64,000 bases of DNA from Minisyncoccota bacterium (GTDB lineage Bacteria; Patescibacteriota; Minisyncoccia; Phycocordibacterales; JBAYLF01): assembly GCA_041664205.1 (NCBI GenBank), contig JBAYLF010000004.1:12297-76296 (forward strand). The letters are read 5' to 3'. Shown one piece after another: positions 4,725-53,435 of the stretch. Below the pieces are notes generated by a model. That model worked only from the letters and a program-made list of their open reading frames with translations, was not told where the DNA came from and made no database searches. How positions within the stretch are numbered: position 1 is the first letter of the stretch; every line of letters starts with the position of its first letter. The position numbers and the translations under genes were made by a program.

Positions 4725-4886
4725 GAACTTATTCTCTGTCTCGTGGTACCCAGGATAAAAAAGACTGTTTTTGAGCGAAAAACTAGACGGAGTACGAAAT
4801 GTAATAGAATTACATTGAGGACGAGTCGAAGTTTTGCAGCCAAAAACAGTCTTTTTTAGACAGGGGGAAGATAGAGAATAGGTTCC
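4724..4886. other. highly structured nested inverted-repeat element (MITE-like element or structured ncRNA)
   Basis: Outer 14-bp inverted repeat GGAACTTATTCTCT / AGAGAATAGGTTCC (one G-T mismatch). Then CTGTCTC/AGACAG, a 17-bp stem AAAAAAGACTGTTTTTG / CAAAAACAGTCTTTTTT, and an inner AATGTAAT/ATTACATT hairpin. Confidence 0.6.
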
Positions 4887-4948: not shown

Positions 4949-5788
4949 GTGCCACAAAAAGATATCTACGTAATAAAACATAGCGGTGAAAAACAAGCTT
5001 TTGATTTTAATAAACTAAAAAGTTCACTGCAGAAATCAAGGATACCGGAGCAAACTGCTGAAAAAGTAGCCGAACATATAAAAAAAGAAGTAAAAAACGG
5101 CATGACTACGAATGAGATTTACGATAGTGCCTATGATTTTTTACACGCAATAGAACGCACATCTGCGGCAAAATATTCGCTAAGAAGATCTATTTTTAGC
5201 CTCGGACCAACAGGTTTTCCTTTTGAGGATCTTGTGGGAGAAATTTTTAAGAAAAAAGGTTATTCGATAAAAAACGATGTGATGATACAAGGTAAGTGCG
5301 TTTCTCATGAGATTGACCTTGTTGCTTGGAAAGAAAATAGTGTAATCGTTTCTGAAATAAAATTCCACAACAAAGTAGGTGAAAAAACCGATCTAAAAGT
5401 TGCTCTTTATGTAAAGGCGAGACTTGACGATCTCTACAAATCAACATTGCATCTTGATGGAAAAGAAAGACATATGGATGAAGGGTGGCTTGTAACAAAT
5501 ACAAAATTCACCACAACCGCAATACAATACGGAACATGCGAAAATATAAAATTGATAGGCTGGAGCTACCCAAAAGAAGGTAACTTGCAAAACCTCATTG
5601 AAGAGTGCGGACTTCATCCTCTCACATGTTTAACAACGCTCTCATTTAATGAAAAAAGAACACTATTAGAAAAGGGGATTGTTATATGTAAAACACTGGA
5701 AAATAATCATGAAATTTTAAGAGATTTGAGATTAGATGATGAAAGAATAAAAGAAGTTTTGGAAGAGATAAAAGTTTTAACAACATAA
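4949..5788 (+). CDS. ATP-cone domain fused to an Mrr-like (PD-(D/E)xK) restriction endonuclease domain
   Basis: N-terminus VIKHSGEKQAFDFNKL... matches ATP-cone (NrdR-like). Central HEIDLVAW...VSEIKF gives a D-(x)n-ExK nuclease motif like the Mrr catalytic domain. GTG start. Confidence 0.65.
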   Translation: MPQKDIYVIKHSGEKQAFDFNKLKSSLQKSRIPEQTAEKVAEHIKKEVKNGMTTNEIYDSAYDFLHAIERTSAAKYSLRRSIFSLGPTGFPFEDLVGEIFKKKGYSIKNDVMIQGKCVSHEIDLVAWKENSVIVSEIKFHNKVGEKTDLKVALYVKARLDDLYKSTLHLDGKERHMDEGWLVTNTKFTTTAIQYGTCENIKLIGWSYPKEGNLQNLIEECGLHPLTCLTTLSFNEKRTLLEKGIVICKTLENNHEILRDLRLDDERIKEVLEEIKVLTT

Positions 5789-21387: not shown

Positions 21388-22752
21388 ATGAAAAAATATA
21401 TTCTTTTTATTTTTTGTTCGCTGTTAGCTGTTAATTTATTATTTTGCGCGCCTCAAAAAGCTTCGGCAGCCTCTCGTGCAGCGGGAAGCGTTTCATATAG
21501 TGTAGATAATGGAAACGGATCAGTAACGCATTACACATTCTTTATAGTAGGAAAGGCAAAAGAAGTTTACCTCCTACTTTCAAATCCAGCAAGCACCTAT
21601 CAGTATTATTTTGCTCTTATGGGATATCCTTCTTGTGGAAACTTTACTATCTCACTAGTTGCTAAAACAACTTCATGTACTCCGCTTTATCAATGCAGTG
21701 GAAATGCTGTAGTCGAAAGATGCTCAGGAGCAACTCAGCAGTGCTCATACGGATGCTCTAACGGATCTTGTAATCCTATGCCTCCGACTCCACCACCTCC
21801 TCCACCAACTAATTTAAGTGGCTCATGCTCAACTGGTGGTAAAACTGCAAACTTCTCTTGGGTTAACGCTGCAGGCTACAACACAGTATACTTCCGGGCA
21901 GTAGATACAACATTATTCGGATGTGTAGCGCAAAACCTAAGTAACCTCTGGAATGAAGGAGTAGTAGGCACAACTTATTCTATTAATACAACACCTGGGC
22001 ACTCTTACTGCTGGTGGTTAAATACAAAAGCTTCCGATGGAAAATGGAGCACCGAAGCAAACACAAAAAACTTTACTTGTGAATGCGATAACGGCACTTC
22101 TAATCCTCCAACATGCACGAAATGCCCGAGTGGTTATAGCCTCATAAACAATGTCTGCACTCTTGTATGTTCTAACGGCGCTACAGATTATCCAACATGC
22201 ACCATATGTCCAATTGGCTATAATCTAATAAATAATATTTGCACTCCTGAATGTTCCAATGGGGCTTCTAATTATCCTACGTGCACTATATGTCCATCTG
22301 GATATACTTTAATAAATAATGCCTGCATTCCTCCTAGTTGCACTCCGAGCTACAGATGTAATGCCGACAACACAGGAGTAATAAATAGTTGCAACAACGG
22401 AACGACTCTATGCCCAACAGATCAAGTTTGCATCGAAGGTGCATGTTCTTCTTTGAAAATAAATAAATTTAATCCTAGTCCATCTCAAGTTCCAAAAAAT
22501 TCTGGATGTAATCTTGTATATGATATCTCAGGCGCACTATCGTGTAATATAACAGGAACAAACATTGGTGGGCAGGGAATTAACTCCATATCATTACCTC
22601 TGATCTCAGGCACAATAAGTAGCAGCACAAAGTCAGGACCCATTCAAACAAAAACAACATACACTCTGTCGTGCGCTGATACTGCTCATGTCATACATTC
22701 AAAGCAAGCAAACTGTTTGATGATGGTTGATATCATCTTCAATGAGTTCTAA
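21388..22752 (+). CDS. secreted Cys-rich repeat protein with poly-Pro linker
   Basis: Signal peptide (LLAVNLLFCAPQKASA). PPTPPPPPP linker. Tandem about 20-aa units CxxCPxGYxLINNxC(T). Confidence 0.7.
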   Translation: MKKYILFIFCSLLAVNLLFCAPQKASAASRAAGSVSYSVDNGNGSVTHYTFFIVGKAKEVYLLLSNPASTYQYYFALMGYPSCGNFTISLVAKTTSCTPLYQCSGNAVVERCSGATQQCSYGCSNGSCNPMPPTPPPPPPTNLSGSCSTGGKTANFSWVNAAGYNTVYFRAVDTTLFGCVAQNLSNLWNEGVVGTTYSINTTPGHSYCWWLNTKASDGKWSTEANTKNFTCECDNGTSNPPTCTKCPSGYSLINNVCTLVCSNGATDYPTCTICPIGYNLINNICTPECSNGASNYPTCTICPSGYTLINNACIPPSCTPSYRCNADNTGVINSCNNGTTLCPTDQVCIEGACSSLKINKFNPSPSQVPKNSGCNLVYDISGALSCNITGTNIGGQGINSISLPLISGTISSSTKSGPIQTKTTYTLSCADTAHVIHSKQANCLMMVDIIFNEF

Positions 22753-24762: not shown

Positions 24763-24916
24763 AATTTCCTCCTTATTTTGTTTTCAACGAACTCTAAAGG
24801 TTGTTTAAATCACTTCCCTATTTCCTTTCATCAACAATTATACCTGACAAAATAAAATAAAACCAAATATGGCTTGTCCTCAAAATCATTTATTTTAACT
24901 TGTCAAAACTTGATTA

Positions 24917-25018
24917 TTTCGTCGAGCGAGAAGCGCCGCGCAAACTTCTTAGTTTGCGCGGCGCTTGAGCGAAGACGAAATATAGGTTCAATTAACACCT
25001 CGCGGCTCTGCCGCGAGG
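24917..25018. other. GC-rich palindromic segment (64-nt imperfect palindrome plus a 21-nt hairpin with T-tail)
   Basis: tttcgtcgagcgagaagcgccgcgcaaac...gtttgcgcggcgcttgagcgaagacgaaa, and cctcgcgg-ctctg-ccgcgagg followed by aacctttatttt. Strongly GC-rich in an AT-rich region. Confidence 0.55.
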
Positions 25019-33900: not shown

Positions 33901-33917
33901 TTTATAAATTTTTATTT

Positions 33918-33989
33918 TGTCATTCCCGCGAAGGCGGGAATCTAGTTTCTGCCTGCTTAATCTGGATTCCCGCCTTCGCGGGAATGACA
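33918..33989. repeat. GC-rich palindromic repeat element, copy 1 (two inverted hairpin units)
   Basis: TGTCATTCCCGCGAAGGCGGGAATC-tagtttctgcctgcttaatctg-GATTCCCGCCTTCGCGGGAATGACA. Each unit is ATTCCC-N8-GGGAAT. Near-identical to 40316-40364. Confidence 0.7.
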
Positions 33990-34001
33990 CAAATTTTTTA
34001 A

Positions 34002-40176: not shown

Positions 40177-40315
40177 GATAATTGAAGTTAAATTTAAATA
40201 ATTAACTGATGTCGTTTATTATAACAAATTTGTTTGATTAGGAACAAAGTAGCTGTGGAACAAAAAACTCACGAATGAATCGCGAATTTTTTTGTAATTT
40301 CCACAAAAACGGAGA

Positions 40316-40364
40316 TCTAATTTCACTCTGCTTAATCTGGATTCCCGCTTTCGCGGGAATGACA
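40316..40364. repeat. GC-rich palindromic repeat element, copy 2 (single hairpin unit)
   Basis: tctaatttcactctgcttaatctgGATTCCCGCTTTCGCGGGAATGACA. Differs by a few mismatches from 33941-33989. Confidence 0.7.
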
Positions 40365-40372
40365 GAAGTATT

Positions 40373-41458
40373 TTAAATCCCCTCTTTTTTCAGATCTTCA
40401 ATCAATCGTCTTGCCTCCTTAGAAAGCTTAGATGGAATCTTGATACTTACGCGGATCAAAAGATCTCCTCTTTTAGTTTTGTCTATTGGCACGCCTTTAT
40501 TTTTTTCTCGAAGAATTTCACCATGTGTTACTCCTTCAGGAATTTTTACTTTTATATCTCCATCAAGAGTATTTATTGTATATTCCGAACCTAGAAGAGC
40601 ATCGGAAAGTTTTACACTTAGATCCATAACTAAATTTTTTCCTTCCTTTTTAAAAGTAGGATGTTTTCTAACATGAATTTTTATATAAAGGTCGCCTGTC
40701 CCCCCACCTGCGATAGCTTCTCCTTTTCCGTTCATACGAAGCATCTCTCCGTCTTCAATTCCTGCTGGAATTTGAATTTTTATTTCTTCTTGCTTTTTAA
40801 GAACTCCCAAACCTGCACATTTTGTGCATTTTACTTTTGGAATTTTGCCTTTGCCGTTGCATTCTGGACAAACTCTTACAGTTGAAAAAGTTCCCATGAA
40901 AGATCTCTTGGTTTCTTTTATCTGACCTTTGCCGTTGCATTTTTCACAGGTCTTCATTTCTGTTCCAGGTTCTGCTCCGTTTCCCGAACAACGTTCACAA
41001 GTTGAAGTTTTATTTAAAGAAAATATTTTTTCTACGCCAAATATTGATTCTGAAAAATTCAATTCAATATCAACTGAAATATCACGTCCTCTTTTTGCAC
41101 GCTGACCTCCACCTCCAAAAAAGTCTCCGAATATATCTCCGAGATCAAATTCAAATTGGCCACCGTTTGCATTTCCAAAGTTTGAAAAATCAAAACCTCC
41201 AAAGTCTTGTCCGCCAAAACCTTGTCCTTGAGGACCGCTTGCACCTTCAAAAGCACTACCATAAGTATCATACTGCGAACGTTTTTTATCATCAGACAAA
41301 ACACTATAAGCCTGACTTATTTCTTTGAACTTGGCTTCGTTGCCAGTTTTCTTATCAGGGTGATATTTATGCGCGAGCTTTCTGAAAGCCTTTTTGATCT
41401 CATCACTTGAGGCTCCTTTTGCAACACCTAAAATTTCATAATAATCTTTATTTGCCAT
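40373..41458 (-). CDS. dnaJ: molecular chaperone DnaJ
   Basis: J-domain with HPD (KYHPDKK). G/F-rich region. Four CxxCxGxG zinc-finger repeats. Confidence 0.9.
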
Positions 41459-50894: not shown

Positions 50895-51041
50895 ATGAAT
50901 GCACAAAAGAAACGCAAAGAAAAAAGGGAAAGAAAGCGCGAGGACGAAAAAATCGCCTCAATTGAAAACAGATTCGGAGCAAACAGTTTCGTTGCCAAAA
51001 CCTACCGAGACCGGCTCCAAAACAAAAGAAATCGGTGGTAA
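50895..51041 (+). CDS. small basic hypothetical protein (48 aa)
   Basis: Lys/Arg-rich peptide followed by a strong terminator. Start is an internal Met of the track ORF. Confidence 0.35.
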   Translation: MNAQKKRKEKRERKREDEKIASIENRFGANSFVAKTYRDRLQNKRNRW

Positions 51042-51051
51042 GAAAAACGAA

Positions 51052-51096
51052 AACAAAAGCGCCCCGCGAATCGTAAAACGATCGCGGGGCTTTATT
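51052..51096 (+). terminator. rho-independent terminator, copy A of a duplicated 45-nt sequence
   Basis: aacaaaagcgccccgcgaatcgtaaaacgatcgcggggctttatt. Confidence 0.75.
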
Positions 51097-51139
51097 ATAT
51101 TTTACAAAGTTTTTAAATATTATATGATTTGCGAAGAAT

Positions 51140-51409
51140 ATGAATGCGATCGAGTTCCTTAAAGAACGACTTGAGGTCGTTGAAAAATATGAATGCAAGA
51201 TTACTGATTCTCTTTATCTTAGAAAGCGTAGCTTTATAAATACTGTAAATATATTGATTAAATTAATAAATCCTAACGCAACACTAACAAAGGGACAGCA
51301 AGAAATTATTTTTTCTATGGTAGACCCATGGCGTCTTTCCTTAAATGATGATCATTGTGTTGAATTGCTTCTACCGATAGCAACTTATATCAACAGTTGT
51401 CATGAGTAA
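51140..51409 (+). CDS. hypothetical protein (89 aa) bracketed by duplicated terminators
   Basis: ORF with no recognised family. Confidence 0.45.
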   Translation: MNAIEFLKERLEVVEKYECKITDSLYLRKRSFINTVNILIKLINPNATLTKGQQEIIFSMVDPWRLSLNDDHCVELLLPIATYINSCHE

Positions 51410-51420
51410 ATAAAAAGATC

Positions 51421-51465
51421 AACAAAAACGCCCCGCGAATCGTAAAACGATCGCGGGGCTTTATT
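51421..51465. terminator. rho-independent terminator, copy B of the duplicated sequence (bidirectional with the Nudix gene)
   Basis: aacaaaaacgccccgcgaatcgtaaaacgatcgcggggctttatt. 44 of 45 positions identical to copy A. Confidence 0.75.
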
Positions 51466-51467
51466 TT

Positions 51468-51905
51468 TTATTTAATATGATAGAACAAATGAATACATAT
51501 ATCTTCGTCCATAATTAAAGTCATCGAAAGTGCTTCTTGTGGAGTTACCCAAACATATTCCGTATGCTCTCTTGGATCGATAATAATTTTTGGCTTTTGC
51601 TCGAGTTCCAAATGAAACATGTGATAAACGAATTCGTATTCAGGATAACGAACATAAACCACTTTAAAAAAGTTAATTTGAACAGGATCCGCCTCAAAGC
51701 CAGTTTCCTCTTGGAGCTCTCTTATAATAGCGACCCATTCATTTTCTCCTTTTTTAGCTTTTCCACCGGGAGCACACCAAGTGTCATTTCCTGGTCTGAT
51801 GGTCTTCTTGCGATGTAAAAGTAAAATTTCTCCATCAGCTTCCAAAAAACAGCCGACGGATTGAAATACTGGCGAAAACCTTACAGGTTTGGTTAGTGAT
51901 AACAT
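51468..51905 (-). CDS. Nudix hydrolase
   Basis: Nudix box GGKAKKGENEWVAIIRELQEETGF. Confidence 0.85.
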   Translation of the reverse strand: MLSLTKPVRFSPVFQSVGCFLEADGEILLLHRKKTIRPGNDTWCAPGGKAKKGENEWVAIIRELQEETGFEADPVQINFFKVVYVRYPEYEFVYHMFHLELEQKPKIIIDPREHTEYVWVTPQEALSMTLIMDEDICIHLFYHIK

Positions 51906-52005: not shown

Positions 52006-52272
52006 TTATTTCCCAAGATCTGACATTTGAATAGGACTTTGTATATTAGGAGGAGTCATATCAATTTTTCCGAACTGTTTTTCATAATTCTCTACCTGAC
52101 TATTCATCCACATAGCAATGCTTTTCATAACTTGTGGCGTAGTAGCAAAAGAATCTAAATTATTTCCGGAAGTTAGGACGAAGGTAAAAATTTCTTTGCC
52201 GTATGCACCGATCGCGCCATCGCAAAACTTTTTTGGCAATTGGTTCAGATCTATCTTTGTTGGGTCAATCAT
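52006..52272 (-). CDS. hypothetical protein
   Basis: 88-aa ORF. No family recognised. Confidence 0.4.
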   Translation of the reverse strand: MIDPTKIDLNQLPKKFCDGAIGAYGKEIFTFVLTSGNNLDSFATTPQVMKSIAMWMNSQVENYEKQFGKIDMTPPNIQSPIQMSDLGK

Positions 52273-52367
52273 AAGTTTGTTTAATTAAAATTAATACATT
52301 CGTATTCTATCATGAAATTAAATAAAGCCTTTATTTTTTATAAAAAATGTGGCAAAATGGCACCATT

Positions 52368-52439
52368 GGCCCTATCGTCTAATGGTTAGGACGCCGGCTT
52401 CTCAAGCCGTTAATCCGGGTTCGACTCCCGGTAGGGTCA
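52368..52439 (+). tRNA. tRNA-Glu (anticodon CTC), no encoded CCA
   Basis: Cloverleaf folded by hand. Acceptor GGCCCTA/TAGGGTC. D-arm GTCT-AATGGTTA-GGAC. Anticodon loop TTCTCAA. T-arm CCGGG-TTCGACT-CCCGG. D-arm closely resembles bacterial tRNA-Glu. Confidence 0.8.
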
Positions 52440-52617
52440 CAAAGATTGAGCAAAGCGAAAGCTTTGTGACCCTGAGCGAGCAAACTGCTTTGCTCACGTC
52501 CGGGAGTCGAAAGGCTTTTCGTTATCGAGCCGAGCTTTGCGAGGTGAGATCGAAAAGCATCCGCGACGGTAGTCGAGACTCCCCCCCCCTGTAGTGTCAA
52601 ATTAAAAAAACAAAGTT
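52440..52617 (+). other. GC-rich structured segment directly fused to the tRNA 3' end, ending in a C9 homopolymer (candidate ncRNA or integration scar)
   Basis: Hairpin GGGTCACAAAG...CTTTGTGACCC uses the tRNA 3' end. Further stems GAGCAAA/TTTGCTC and GGGAGTC/GACTCCC. Then a CCCCCCCCC tract. Followed by a terminator at 52636-52663. Confidence 0.45.
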
Positions 52618-52635
52618 TAATACTTAATAAATCAT

Positions 52636-52663
52636 AAAAACCAGGCATTTACCTGGTTTTTTG
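52636..52663 (+). terminator. rho-independent terminator
   Basis: aaccagg-catttac-cctggtttttt. Confidence 0.7.
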
Positions 52664-52876
52664 CTTTCGCATGTTAATAATATTTTTACATACATATTAG
52701 TAAAAATATAATATTCATACAATTTTAAAAATACAAGCCAAGTAAAAATGGTAAATGGTGTAAAAACACCCAGCAAACAAAGCGACACTCAGCAAACAAC
52801 CAACATGAAAACTAGACATTAAAATAGACATCATGAAAAATAAATGTTGTAAGTGGTAAACATCAGTAAATATCAA

Positions 52877-52904
52877 TGGACAGACAACAATCAACTGGTA
52901 TAAT
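52877..52904 (+). promoter_or_regulatory. sigma70-like promoter with extended -10 (TGGACA-N16-TGGTATAAT)
   Basis: Hexamers read from the sequence. The -10 lies 6 nt upstream of the ATG at 52911. Confidence 0.5.
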
Positions 52905-52910
52905 AGAAAT

Positions 52911-53330
52911 ATGACATACGAAAATAAACAATTTGAAGAATTTATCGCACCTACAGGACGTATAACACCTCTTGTTACTTTTGATCCATCAGGTCGCCTT
53001 TACTTATCATCTGCACTTACACAAATACACAAGCTAAACGAAAAAGATTTCCCTGATGTTAAAATTTATTTTAACAAAAGTGACGAAATCATAGCGATAA
53101 AACCTCTTAAAAACAAAGAGAATGGTTCTATTAAGTTAAAATATGGAAAACAAGGTGGTGGATTTATTAACAGTAGAGCATTTGCAATTAAGTATGAAAT
53201 GGTTGATAAAACTGAAAATGGAGATTTTAAATTGAAAGATAAATACAAAGGAAAATACTATATTACAGATGAAGAAATAACTGGTATTGGTAGAGTGTTT
53301 ATTTTAAAGTTAAGAGATAGAAGAAAATAG
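52911..53330 (+). CDS. hypothetical protein (139 aa), orphan gene
   Basis: ORF with its own promoter. No family recognised. Followed 4 nt later by a 26-bp perfect inverted repeat. Confidence 0.5.
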   Translation: MTYENKQFEEFIAPTGRITPLVTFDPSGRLYLSSALTQIHKLNEKDFPDVKIYFNKSDEIIAIKPLKNKENGSIKLKYGKQGGGFINSRAFAIKYEMVDKTENGDFKLKDKYKGKYYITDEEITGIGRVFILKLRDRRK

Positions 53331-53333
53331 AAA

Positions 53334-53435
53334 AAACACCCCGTTATCTGAGCTGTGAGGCAAAAATACATTACTAGGCACCGTTTCCAACGATGATAAG
53401 TGATGAATACTCACAGCTCAGATAACGGGGTGTTT
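53334..53435. repeat. perfect 26-bp inverted repeat with 50-nt loop
   Basis: AAACACCCCGTTATCTGAGCTGTGAG ... CTCACAGCTCAGATAACGGGGTGTTT. On the - strand it is followed by TTTTTTC, so it could terminate the murF operon. Confidence 0.7.

Follow-up and report, generated by a model that had tools for sequence, protein, structure and literature searches.

A covarying, tRNA-derived non-coding element at tRNA 3′ ends in Patescibacteria

We investigated the region downstream of a tRNA-Glu gene in a stretch of 64,000 nt from a Minisyncoccota bacterium (GenBank assembly GCA_041664205.1, contig JBAYLF010000004.1, positions 12,297 to 76,296 of the forward strand), which as a whole is called the window here and in whose own numbering all coordinates are given. 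An earlier note, made from the sequence of the window, had drawn attention to a GC-rich extension that directly follows this gene. The extension is a slightly decayed copy of an uncatalogued and widespread non-coding family located at tRNA 3′ ends in Patescibacteria, members of the candidate phyla radiation (CPR). A comparison with one relative, from a Campbellbacteria metagenome-assembled genome (MAG; locus L045, the L-numbers being loci of relatives compared with the window), revealed that the block is made of copies of the tRNA's own 3′ end. A covariance model built on a MAFFT seed of 24 metagenomic copies, from which the window was excluded, recognizes the window copy over its full length (52466-52601, 68.9 bits, E=4e-17), which is its one credible match within the 64 kb, and also the copy in L045 (49.7 bits).

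Architecture of the element and its family

The tRNA-Glu(CTC) gene, on the + strand at 52368-52440, is intact and was correctly identified in the earlier note. It is the single tRNA called by ARAGORN in the window and matches the Rfam tRNA model RF00005 with 62.6 bits at 52368-52439; A73 is at 52439 and C74 at 52440, and the CCA end is not encoded. Its last 21 nt (52420-52440, +; TTCGACTCCCGGTAGGGTCAC), which comprise the T-loop, the 3′ strand of the T-stem, the 3′ strand of the acceptor stem, A73 and C74 and which we term segment a, are present as two further copies inside the element, one inverted (a′) and one direct (a″). The element itself forms a block at 52441-52601 with about 55% GC (52–58% in 100-nt windows), compared with 20–25% in the spacer (20–21% in the intergenic DNA on its flanks) and 34% in the whole window; it is GC-richer than its flanks, as had been noted, and extends over about 160 nt rather than the 175 nt first given.

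All parts of the element described below lie on the + strand. The end of the tRNA and the left arm of the element form a hairpin (HP1, 52433-52473) with an exact stem of AGGGTCACAAAG (52433-52444) and CTTTGTGACCCT (52462-52473), in which a pairs with the acceptor part of a′; the earlier note had recognized this stem on the tRNA 3′ terminus and counted 11 bp, where there are 12. The loop of HP1 (L, 52445-52461) contains a GAGC-AAA-GCGA mini-hairpin and belongs to a short class without terminator; the window copy has no T-run in HP1. The inverted copy begins with a′acc (52466-52474; GTGACCCTG), the reverse complement of the acceptor 3′ strand with A73 and C74, which is also where the match to the family model begins (52466). 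A second hairpin with a CTGC loop (HP2, 52474-52495), of which all nine pairs covary across the family, then interrupts a′ exactly at the boundary between acceptor stem and T-stem, after which a′ continues as a′T (52500-52511; CCGGGAGTCGAA), the exact reverse complement of the T-loop and T-stem 3′ strand with 0 mismatches. Next come P3 (52514-52558; GA-GCC-GA-GC-TTT-GC-GA-GGT-GA), a long variable hairpin with a lower stem of 8 covarying bp and with two tandem G.A/A.G steps, and P4 (52564-52575), a small hairpin of CGAC-GGTA-GTCG; across the family, P4 has a consensus of five stem pairs closed by a YGTAR loop.

At the right end of the element, the tRNA 3′ end is repeated directly, though in decayed form, as a″ (52577-52600), which reads GACTCCC, six further C and TGTAGTGTCAA, against GACTCCCGGTAGGGTCAC in the tRNA. 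It differs from the tRNA at 3 of 15 nt, with one mismatch in the acceptor part, and by the C-run; the nine consecutive C pointed out earlier (52581-52589) are a homopolymer expansion within this repeat. The T-arm-like pairing that had been proposed for the extension is likewise present, as GGGAGTC within a′T pairs with GACTCCC at 52577-52583, that is, with a″. The core of the window copy is complete and its right repeat is decaying; Tandem Repeats Finder (TRF) detected no tandem repeats in the extension. Folded as RNA, the + strand reaches −67.6 kcal/mol (z=−5.1, 0 of 200 shuffles equally good), compared with z=−3.5 for the minus strand and z=−7.9 for folding as DNA. In the minimum free energy (MFE) structure of the complete transcript of tRNA and element, the T arm and the acceptor 3′ strand of the tRNA are paired with a′.

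Downstream of the element, a hairpin with a CCAGG/CCTGG stem on the + strand is followed by TTTTTTGC (52636-52662; ACCAGG/CCTGGT, then TTTTTGC). This is the terminator seen in the earlier note, a GC-containing hairpin with a T-run, and it is usable in both directions; since its A-run and T-run are mutually paired, a consensus terminator scan scored it on the minus strand only. The tRNA-Glu gene probably ended at this terminator originally. Because no T-run separates the tRNA from the element in the window copy, a single transcript is plausible there, and the tRNA, the element and this hairpin could, judged from their sequence, form one transcription unit.

Further members of the family were collected with a pattern scan of metagenomes for the T-stem and acceptor end of tRNA-Glu followed within 20–50 nt by GTGACCCT. 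The scan retrieved at least 119 contigs carrying tRNA-Glu and the hairpin signature, nearly all of which share the full architecture; as this selection forces both tRNA-Glu and HP1, frequencies in the set are biased and the counts apply among the matches listed. The order of parts in the family is HP1, AAG, HP2, CGT, a′T, P3, GTACTG, P4, GAT and a″, with HP2 usually of 9–10 bp and often with a CTGC loop, P4 with its YGTAR loop and, in some copies, an additional mini-hairpin (P5) after GAT. Units are ORF-free (open reading frame, ORF) and measure 162–207 nt, or about 160–210 nt in round figures. The covariance model yielded 136 further matches in 129 metagenome loci, which brings the family to at least 138 copies in Patescibacteria DNA. 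For 114 matches in 1.1 Mb of relatives the location was determined: 88 lie directly 3′ of a tRNA gene, 8 directly after another copy and 7 at the edge of a contig, and the other 11 are more than 120 nt away from any tRNA, those inspected among the remainder being in arrays or behind cargo DNA. In all copies the element is on the same strand as the tRNA.

The fold is supported by extensive covariation. In the seed alignment of 24 copies, 25 of 43 pairs vary on both sides, and among 103 distinct model-aligned copies this holds for all 40 of 40 pairs. The latter set contains 754 cells with two-sided changes compared with 211 in shuffles, and 89% of its cells are paired compared with at most 47% when the partners are slid; this alignment was fitted to the model and hence leans towards it, and the MAFFT seed gives the same picture. 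Wobble pairs make up about 2%, with 64 G.U against 50 A.C, or 34 against 16 when the poorly aligned P3 is left out, an asymmetry that is weak and not decisive for either the strand or the nucleic acid that folds. The copies frequently contain C-GNA-G loops (GCGAAGC, GCGTAGC, C-GTA-G) and tandem G.A steps, motifs that are stable in both RNA and DNA and particularly so in DNA.

The family does not correspond to a catalogued RNA. At gathering level, an Rfam 15 scan of the window is passed by the tRNA alone; a scan of 52250-52800 with E-values up to 10 gave nothing credible and no second tRNA, and 13 relatives searched with E-values up to 1 matched nothing except tRNA. A full-text literature search found no description of such an element.

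Flanks, distribution and genomic surroundings

The flanks of the element follow the tRNA next to which it lies. Compared with the T-loop and T-stem of the adjacent tRNA, a′T has at most two mismatches in 55 of 65 distinct loci and is a perfect complement in 36 of 65, tracking the T-stem variants CCCGG, CCCCG, CTCTG, CCCTG and CCCAG. The acceptor part, a′acc, is an invariant GTGACCCTA, a perfect complement that reaches over A73 and C74. The tRNA carries G2, paired with U, at 51 of 51 loci, and every copy has A at the corresponding position of a′acc. The inverted arm a′ is accordingly the reverse complement of the 3′ strand and not a copy of the tRNA 5′ half; HP1 is wholly Watson-Crick where the acceptor stem of the tRNA has its G.U pair. 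At 23 of 65 loci the direct repeat a″ is clean, with no more than one edit in 15 nt and identity that may begin exactly at T54; at the others it is decayed, often in its acceptor half. The ancestral flank lies 3′ of a″: it starts with CA, completing an encoded CCA, in 5 of 22 cases, and it includes a second terminator. The same core is found 3′ of tRNA-Ser(CGA), tRNA-Val(TAC and GAC) and tRNA-Phe, where a′ and a″ fit the respective tRNA, and the Glu, Ser, Val and Phe versions alike have HP2 inserted in a′ at the boundary between acceptor stem and T-stem.

In 44 of 55 copies, L has a T-run and resembles a terminator, so that most copies are probably not efficiently co-transcribed with the tRNA; 10 of 55, the window copy included, have neither A-run nor T-run. 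At four loci that carry no element (L100, L111, L121 and L130), the terminator hairpin of tRNA-Glu takes in about 10 bp of the acceptor 3′ strand (GTAGGGTCAC...GTGACCCTAC), which indicates that terminators of the HP1 type exist independently of the element.

Presence of the element is sporadic. It follows 1 of 8 tRNA-Glu genes in 75 species representatives of Paceibacteria, an unbiased but small set that was chosen via the DUF3467 gene; the other genes have a plain terminator. Tandem arrays contain up to at least four cores (L172), and gene-sized DNA separates copies in L123 and L138. In L138 and L167, the T-stem pair of the copies is not the one present in the upstream tRNA end, and these copies were therefore not made from the tRNA that is now their neighbour.

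No gene is consistently linked to the element. An all-against-all BLAST of flanking ORFs produced clusters of at most four and no conserved neighbour, and the genes downstream of copies are for the most part ORFans; a LexA-like and an HNH protein are also encoded there. A search of GenBank phages matched tRNAs only, and pattern scans of IMG/VR viral contigs with motifs of the element found it absent there; one such pattern hit 16 unrelated contigs, of which 14 contain GGGTCA-type short repeats and two are other chance matches. In L003 (1845-3392) and L025 (about 491-2173), the 3′ end of tRNA-Glu(TTC) is overlapped by a convergent gene for a large serine recombinase of 515 aa, and in L004, which is near-identical to L003, the same site holds an ORF behind a hairpin that uses the last bases of the tRNA, the product being GIY-YIG-like by reading of its translation only, without a profile library. 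In a phmmer search, homologues of the L003 recombinase occurred in only two element-carrying loci, at a distance of several kb. The 3′ end of tRNA-Glu is a general insertion hotspot in these bacteria.

Two further kinds of sequence were observed around tRNA-Glu genes. Downstream of tRNA-Glu or of the element, L020, L140/L160, L142, L157, L163, L164 and L170 contain, with and without the element, a second module that consists of GTGAARGCGCAGGC, a hairpin and AGCCGAGCYGGGGTC, with TTTAGTAACTTGTGACCACA at its end. Some tRNA-Glu genes are preceded by truncated copies of the tRNA-Glu 5′ part (nt 1–20 or 1–31, sometimes with promoter), fused to modules that share the P3-GGTGTACTG-P4 core of the element (L153 1420-1760, L192 about 5300-5560 and L045 2142-2329, all on the minus strand); these suggest related insertions or rearrangements on the 5′ side of the tRNA as well.

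Within the window, the tRNA-Glu gene and its element have as neighbours a DUF3467-like gene on one side (52006-52272, minus strand) and an ORFan on the other (52911-53330), beyond which the dcw genes murF, ftsI, an ftsL-like ORF (so assigned by position and size alone), rsmH and mraZ follow on the minus strand. The element does sit at the break in the dcw cluster on which the earlier note had remarked, and this position is not special: tRNA-Glu adjoins murF/ftsI in L097, L130, L131, L159 and L162, and the arrangement is recurrent and not caused by the element. While the DUF3467 gene is highly conserved, its neighbourhood is not, and tRNA-Glu lies beside it in few loci; contigs with the most similar DUF3467 proteins have other contexts, and no empty site was found among them in a close relative. 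The ORFan encodes 139 aa with no Pfam match and just a faint PHROG hit, has its own near-consensus promoter (52877-52904) and is followed at 53334-53435 by a perfect inverted repeat of 26 bp around a 50-nt loop; this region (52911-53435), placed between the element and murF, has the appearance of accessory DNA.

Several other repeats were recorded in the window. Two long intergenic hairpins of about 100–120 nt (560-680 and 4740-4875) share TTTTGAGCGA in their 5′ arm and GCA(A/G)CCAAAA in their 3′ arm and may belong to a further family of structured repeats in this genome; a hairpin at 24911-24985 contains the GAGCGA motif as well. A 90-nt repeat at 33912-34001 and 40287-40376 (81% identity) is a near-perfect 34-bp palindrome on ATTCCCGCGAAGGCGGGAAT in the first copy and half decayed in the second. 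Terminator-like hairpins at 51040-51103 and 51409-51472, 86% identical (GCCCCGCGAATCGTAAAACGATCGCGGGGC), bracket a small ORF (51140-51409), and at 22075-22326 three in-frame 84-nt tandem repeats with 69–71% identity encode a Cys-rich module.

Possible origin and role of the element

We tentatively favour, at a little under even probability, the reading that the element is a small, non-autonomous selfish insertion at the tRNA 3′ end that as a folded single strand mimics an acceptor/T arm. In this reading, the inserted block consists of the capping hairpin L, a′ split by HP2, the hairpin core (P3, P4 and sometimes P5) and a″, so that two tRNA 3′ ends flank it in the manner of attL and attR, in the order tRNA(a), L, a′, core, a″ and old terminator. 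The tRNA would be completed by the incoming copy and remain intact, and the displaced original 3′ end would retain the old flank with its terminator. For tRNA-targeting integrases with a crossover in the T-loop, the block of identity between element and target usually has just this extent, T-loop to 3′ end. In single-stranded form, as DNA or RNA, a′ could pair with a″ or with the tRNA end and so produce a double-stranded imitation of the acceptor/T arm that may serve as a mimic of a recombination site; written in circular permutation, the block would be a closed rod with L capping one end, the core the other and a:a′ as its shaft. The element may spread by recombination at the conserved tRNA end, by means of a recombinase supplied in trans that acts on the folded site or, alternatively, by plain homologous recombination with the tRNA and a″ as homology arms, a route that would account for the copies with a foreign T-stem. 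The fold may have been kept by selection since propagation would depend on it.

The integration scar or attachment site considered in the earlier note comes closest to this picture, as the direct repeat from T-loop to C74 is there and is clean in relatives; the element is more than a scar, being a covarying family, and this conservation makes the tRNA-linked ncRNA that was also considered possible too. A distant duplicate of the attachment site within the window, which had been suggested as a check, is absent when 22 nt or 17 nt from the tRNA end are searched with as many as 3 mismatches allowed, because the duplicate sits inside the element. A bolder version, which we regard as rather unlikely, is a tiny gene-free element that homes to tRNA genes, in which the folded strand would be both tRNA mimic and recombination site and the arms would be re-templated from the adjacent tRNA, so that one core would come to have Glu-, Ser-, Val- and Phe-matched flanks. 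We know of no described precedent for such target-copying, tRNA-shaped homing.

Several points weigh against a selfish insertion. Among the flanking ORFs examined, no recombinase, transposase or conserved gene is linked in cis, and neither a free or circular form nor a precise empty site in a close relative has been demonstrated. The combination of deep divergence, covariation and usually one copy per tRNA resembles a functional RNA or a self-splicing intron more than a miniature inverted-repeat transposable element (MITE). The position of HP2 exactly at the acceptor/T-stem boundary in four tRNA types is not predicted by a purely DNA-level mechanism, and the matching of a′ to a new tRNA species is left without explanation. 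In the window, moreover, no terminator lies between tRNA and element, which by the sequence makes co-transcription there likely, and the pattern used to select the metagenome loci forced tRNA-Glu and HP1 and so biases the frequencies.

Some of these points are what would be expected of a tRNA-like ncRNA cut from the tRNA-Glu transcript, a serious possibility that we nevertheless place on the unlikely side. After read-through past HP1, the a′ and a″ ends would form an acceptor-like helix stacked on a T-stem-like helix, HP2 would take the place of the D and anticodon arms, and RNase Z and RNase P would release the product as they do mascRNA, its partner being a tRNA-handling or other protein. 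The strong covariation in a single-strand fold, the invariable co-orientation with the tRNA, the placement of HP2 in the versions of all four tRNAs, the better fold of the + strand, the excess of G.U over A.C in well-aligned helices (34 against 16), the location on the + strand of the tandem G.A steps and of the P4 loop with its GTA (YGTAR), and in the window an HP1 without T-run and a terminator 3′ of the element all agree with such an RNA. The 44 of 55 copies behind a terminator-like hairpin, with no space for a promoter of their own, do not, nor do the sporadic presence and tandem stacking, the frequent decay of the acceptor half of a″ and the rarity of wobble pairs for an RNA of an AT-rich genome; the T-loop is base-paired and not free, there is no Rfam match, with the mascRNA model matching the real tRNA only, and a mere tRNA look-alike needs no match to the neighbouring tRNA. 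Another reading is a cis-acting switch for maturation of the adjacent tRNA, in which a′ would either pair with the 3′ half of the tRNA and so unfold it or bind the decoy a″ and leave the tRNA free, and the core hairpins would set the balance. The MFE pairing of a′ with the T arm and acceptor 3′ strand in the whole transcript, the perfect complementarity of a′T in 36 of 65 loci with its tracking of T-stem variants and the Watson-Crick HP1 opposite an acceptor stem with G.U are consistent with a switch. It is made improbable by the mismatched T-stems in L138 and L167, the lack of the element at most tRNA-Glu genes, multi-core arrays and copies distant from a tRNA that have no evident role, and the terminator inside HP1.

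The element might also be an inert remnant with no function of its own, namely the two attachment-site arms of a larger, deleted island, in keeping with the direct repeat of the tRNA end and its decayed right copy, with the serine-recombinase islands that use the same tRNA end in relatives, and with the ORFan and other variable DNA downstream; 40 covarying pairs across more than 100 diverged copies would not be expected of a remnant and come close to refuting it, a constant size of 160–210 nt and matched flanks at four tRNA species are equally unexpected, and we consider it very improbable. It is hardly credible that the extension is a second, degenerate tRNA gene or that it is GC-rich spacer by chance. 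In favour of a second tRNA, a″ is indeed a tRNA 3′ fragment and the ends can form a 7–9-bp acceptor-like helix, yet neither ARAGORN nor Rfam calls a tRNA there, and the 5′ arm, which has A where the 5′ strand of the tRNA has G2 (51 of 51 loci), is the 3′ strand in reverse complement. A random spacer is contradicted by the family-model match (E=4e-17) and the fold (z=−5.1). These tests of tRNA models, a′ polarity, family model and fold refute both.

CPR bacteria have tiny genomes with little non-coding DNA, and yet a covarying element of about 200 nt is kept at their tRNA 3′ ends; something therefore selects for it. If mobile, it would represent a minimal and harmless way to colonize essential genes, by duplicating the tRNA end and bringing a terminator, and possibly a marker of an undescribed recombination system. 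If an RNA, it would constitute a new class of tRNA mimic linked to the processing of tRNAs, in organisms with a scarcely known RNA biology. In either case the family is absent from Rfam and will confuse the annotation of tRNAs and attachment sites in thousands of MAGs, and the covariance model together with the anatomy makes it searchable and testable.

Comparison with known systems

Genomic islands and prophages in tRNA genes have attL and attR repeats of the tRNA 3′ part and cross over in the T-loop or at the 3′ end. With them, the element shares insertion at a tRNA 3′ end that leaves the tRNA intact, a repeat from T-loop to 3′ end that bounds the insert, a displaced copy that keeps the old flank, and tandem insertions. 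It differs in its size of 160–210 bp without an integrase or any other gene, and in having an inverted copy of the tRNA end, a covarying multi-hairpin fold and flanks tailored to four tRNAs. Like MITEs, repetitive extragenic palindromic (REP) sequences and cis-mobilizable elements, it is small, non-coding and hairpin-rich, has inverted ends and presumably relies on functions supplied in trans; unlike MITEs and REP sequences, its copies occur only at tRNA 3′ ends or in arrays behind them rather than dispersed, and are deeply diverged with compensatory changes instead of many being near-identical.

Group I introns of bacterial tRNA genes are also structured, sporadic, gene-free inserts, and the element resembles them in possessing a guide-like segment complementary to the upstream tRNA. 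The tRNA is however uninterrupted here, its end being duplicated and not split, and the element has neither a P3–P9 core nor a splice-site G.U. A group I intron was rejected, as the tRNA is complete upstream of the element and no Rfam intron model matches; to our knowledge, the smallest such introns have about 200 nt, and the element is shorter. The defining features of a K-turn, a hammerhead, a retron ncRNA, IS200/605 ends, an IS110 bridge RNA and tmRNA are all lacking, as is the complement to CCA that a primer-binding site for tRNA-primed reverse transcription would have.

The mascRNA of MALAT1, the tRNA-like domain of tmRNA and viral tRNA-like structures have in common with the element an acceptor-like helix on a T-stem-like helix, followed by a discriminator base; the element is oriented in the direction of transcription of the tRNA, and release by RNase P and RNase Z would be possible in principle. 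In contrast to these RNAs, its T-loop is paired and carries an insert of about 90 nt, the whole is one long hairpin without D or anticodon arm, the tRNA, mascRNA and tmRNA models miss it, and it always copies the neighbouring tRNA.

Integron attC and the attP(+) of CTX phage are recombination sites that work as folded single strands. The inverted site copies of the element, about 100 nt apart, could similarly fold into a hairpin that imitates a double-stranded target, its order of site, cargo, inverted copy, loop region and direct copy would be the expected leftover of single-strand integration, and in a few cases (L123, L138) arrays contain small or gene-sized cargo. It differs from these sites in lacking an integron integrase, an attC core or a dif-like site, in targeting the end of a tRNA gene, and in the conservation of its internal sequence motifs beyond shape. 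An attC-type site proper was rejected: RYYYAAC/GTTRRRY cores are absent, the ends are tRNA-derived (GTGACCCTA / TAGGGTCAC) and no integrase gene is near. While the element is a member of neither attC nor CTX attP, folded single-strand sites of this kind would, by analogy, be the closest working model for it.

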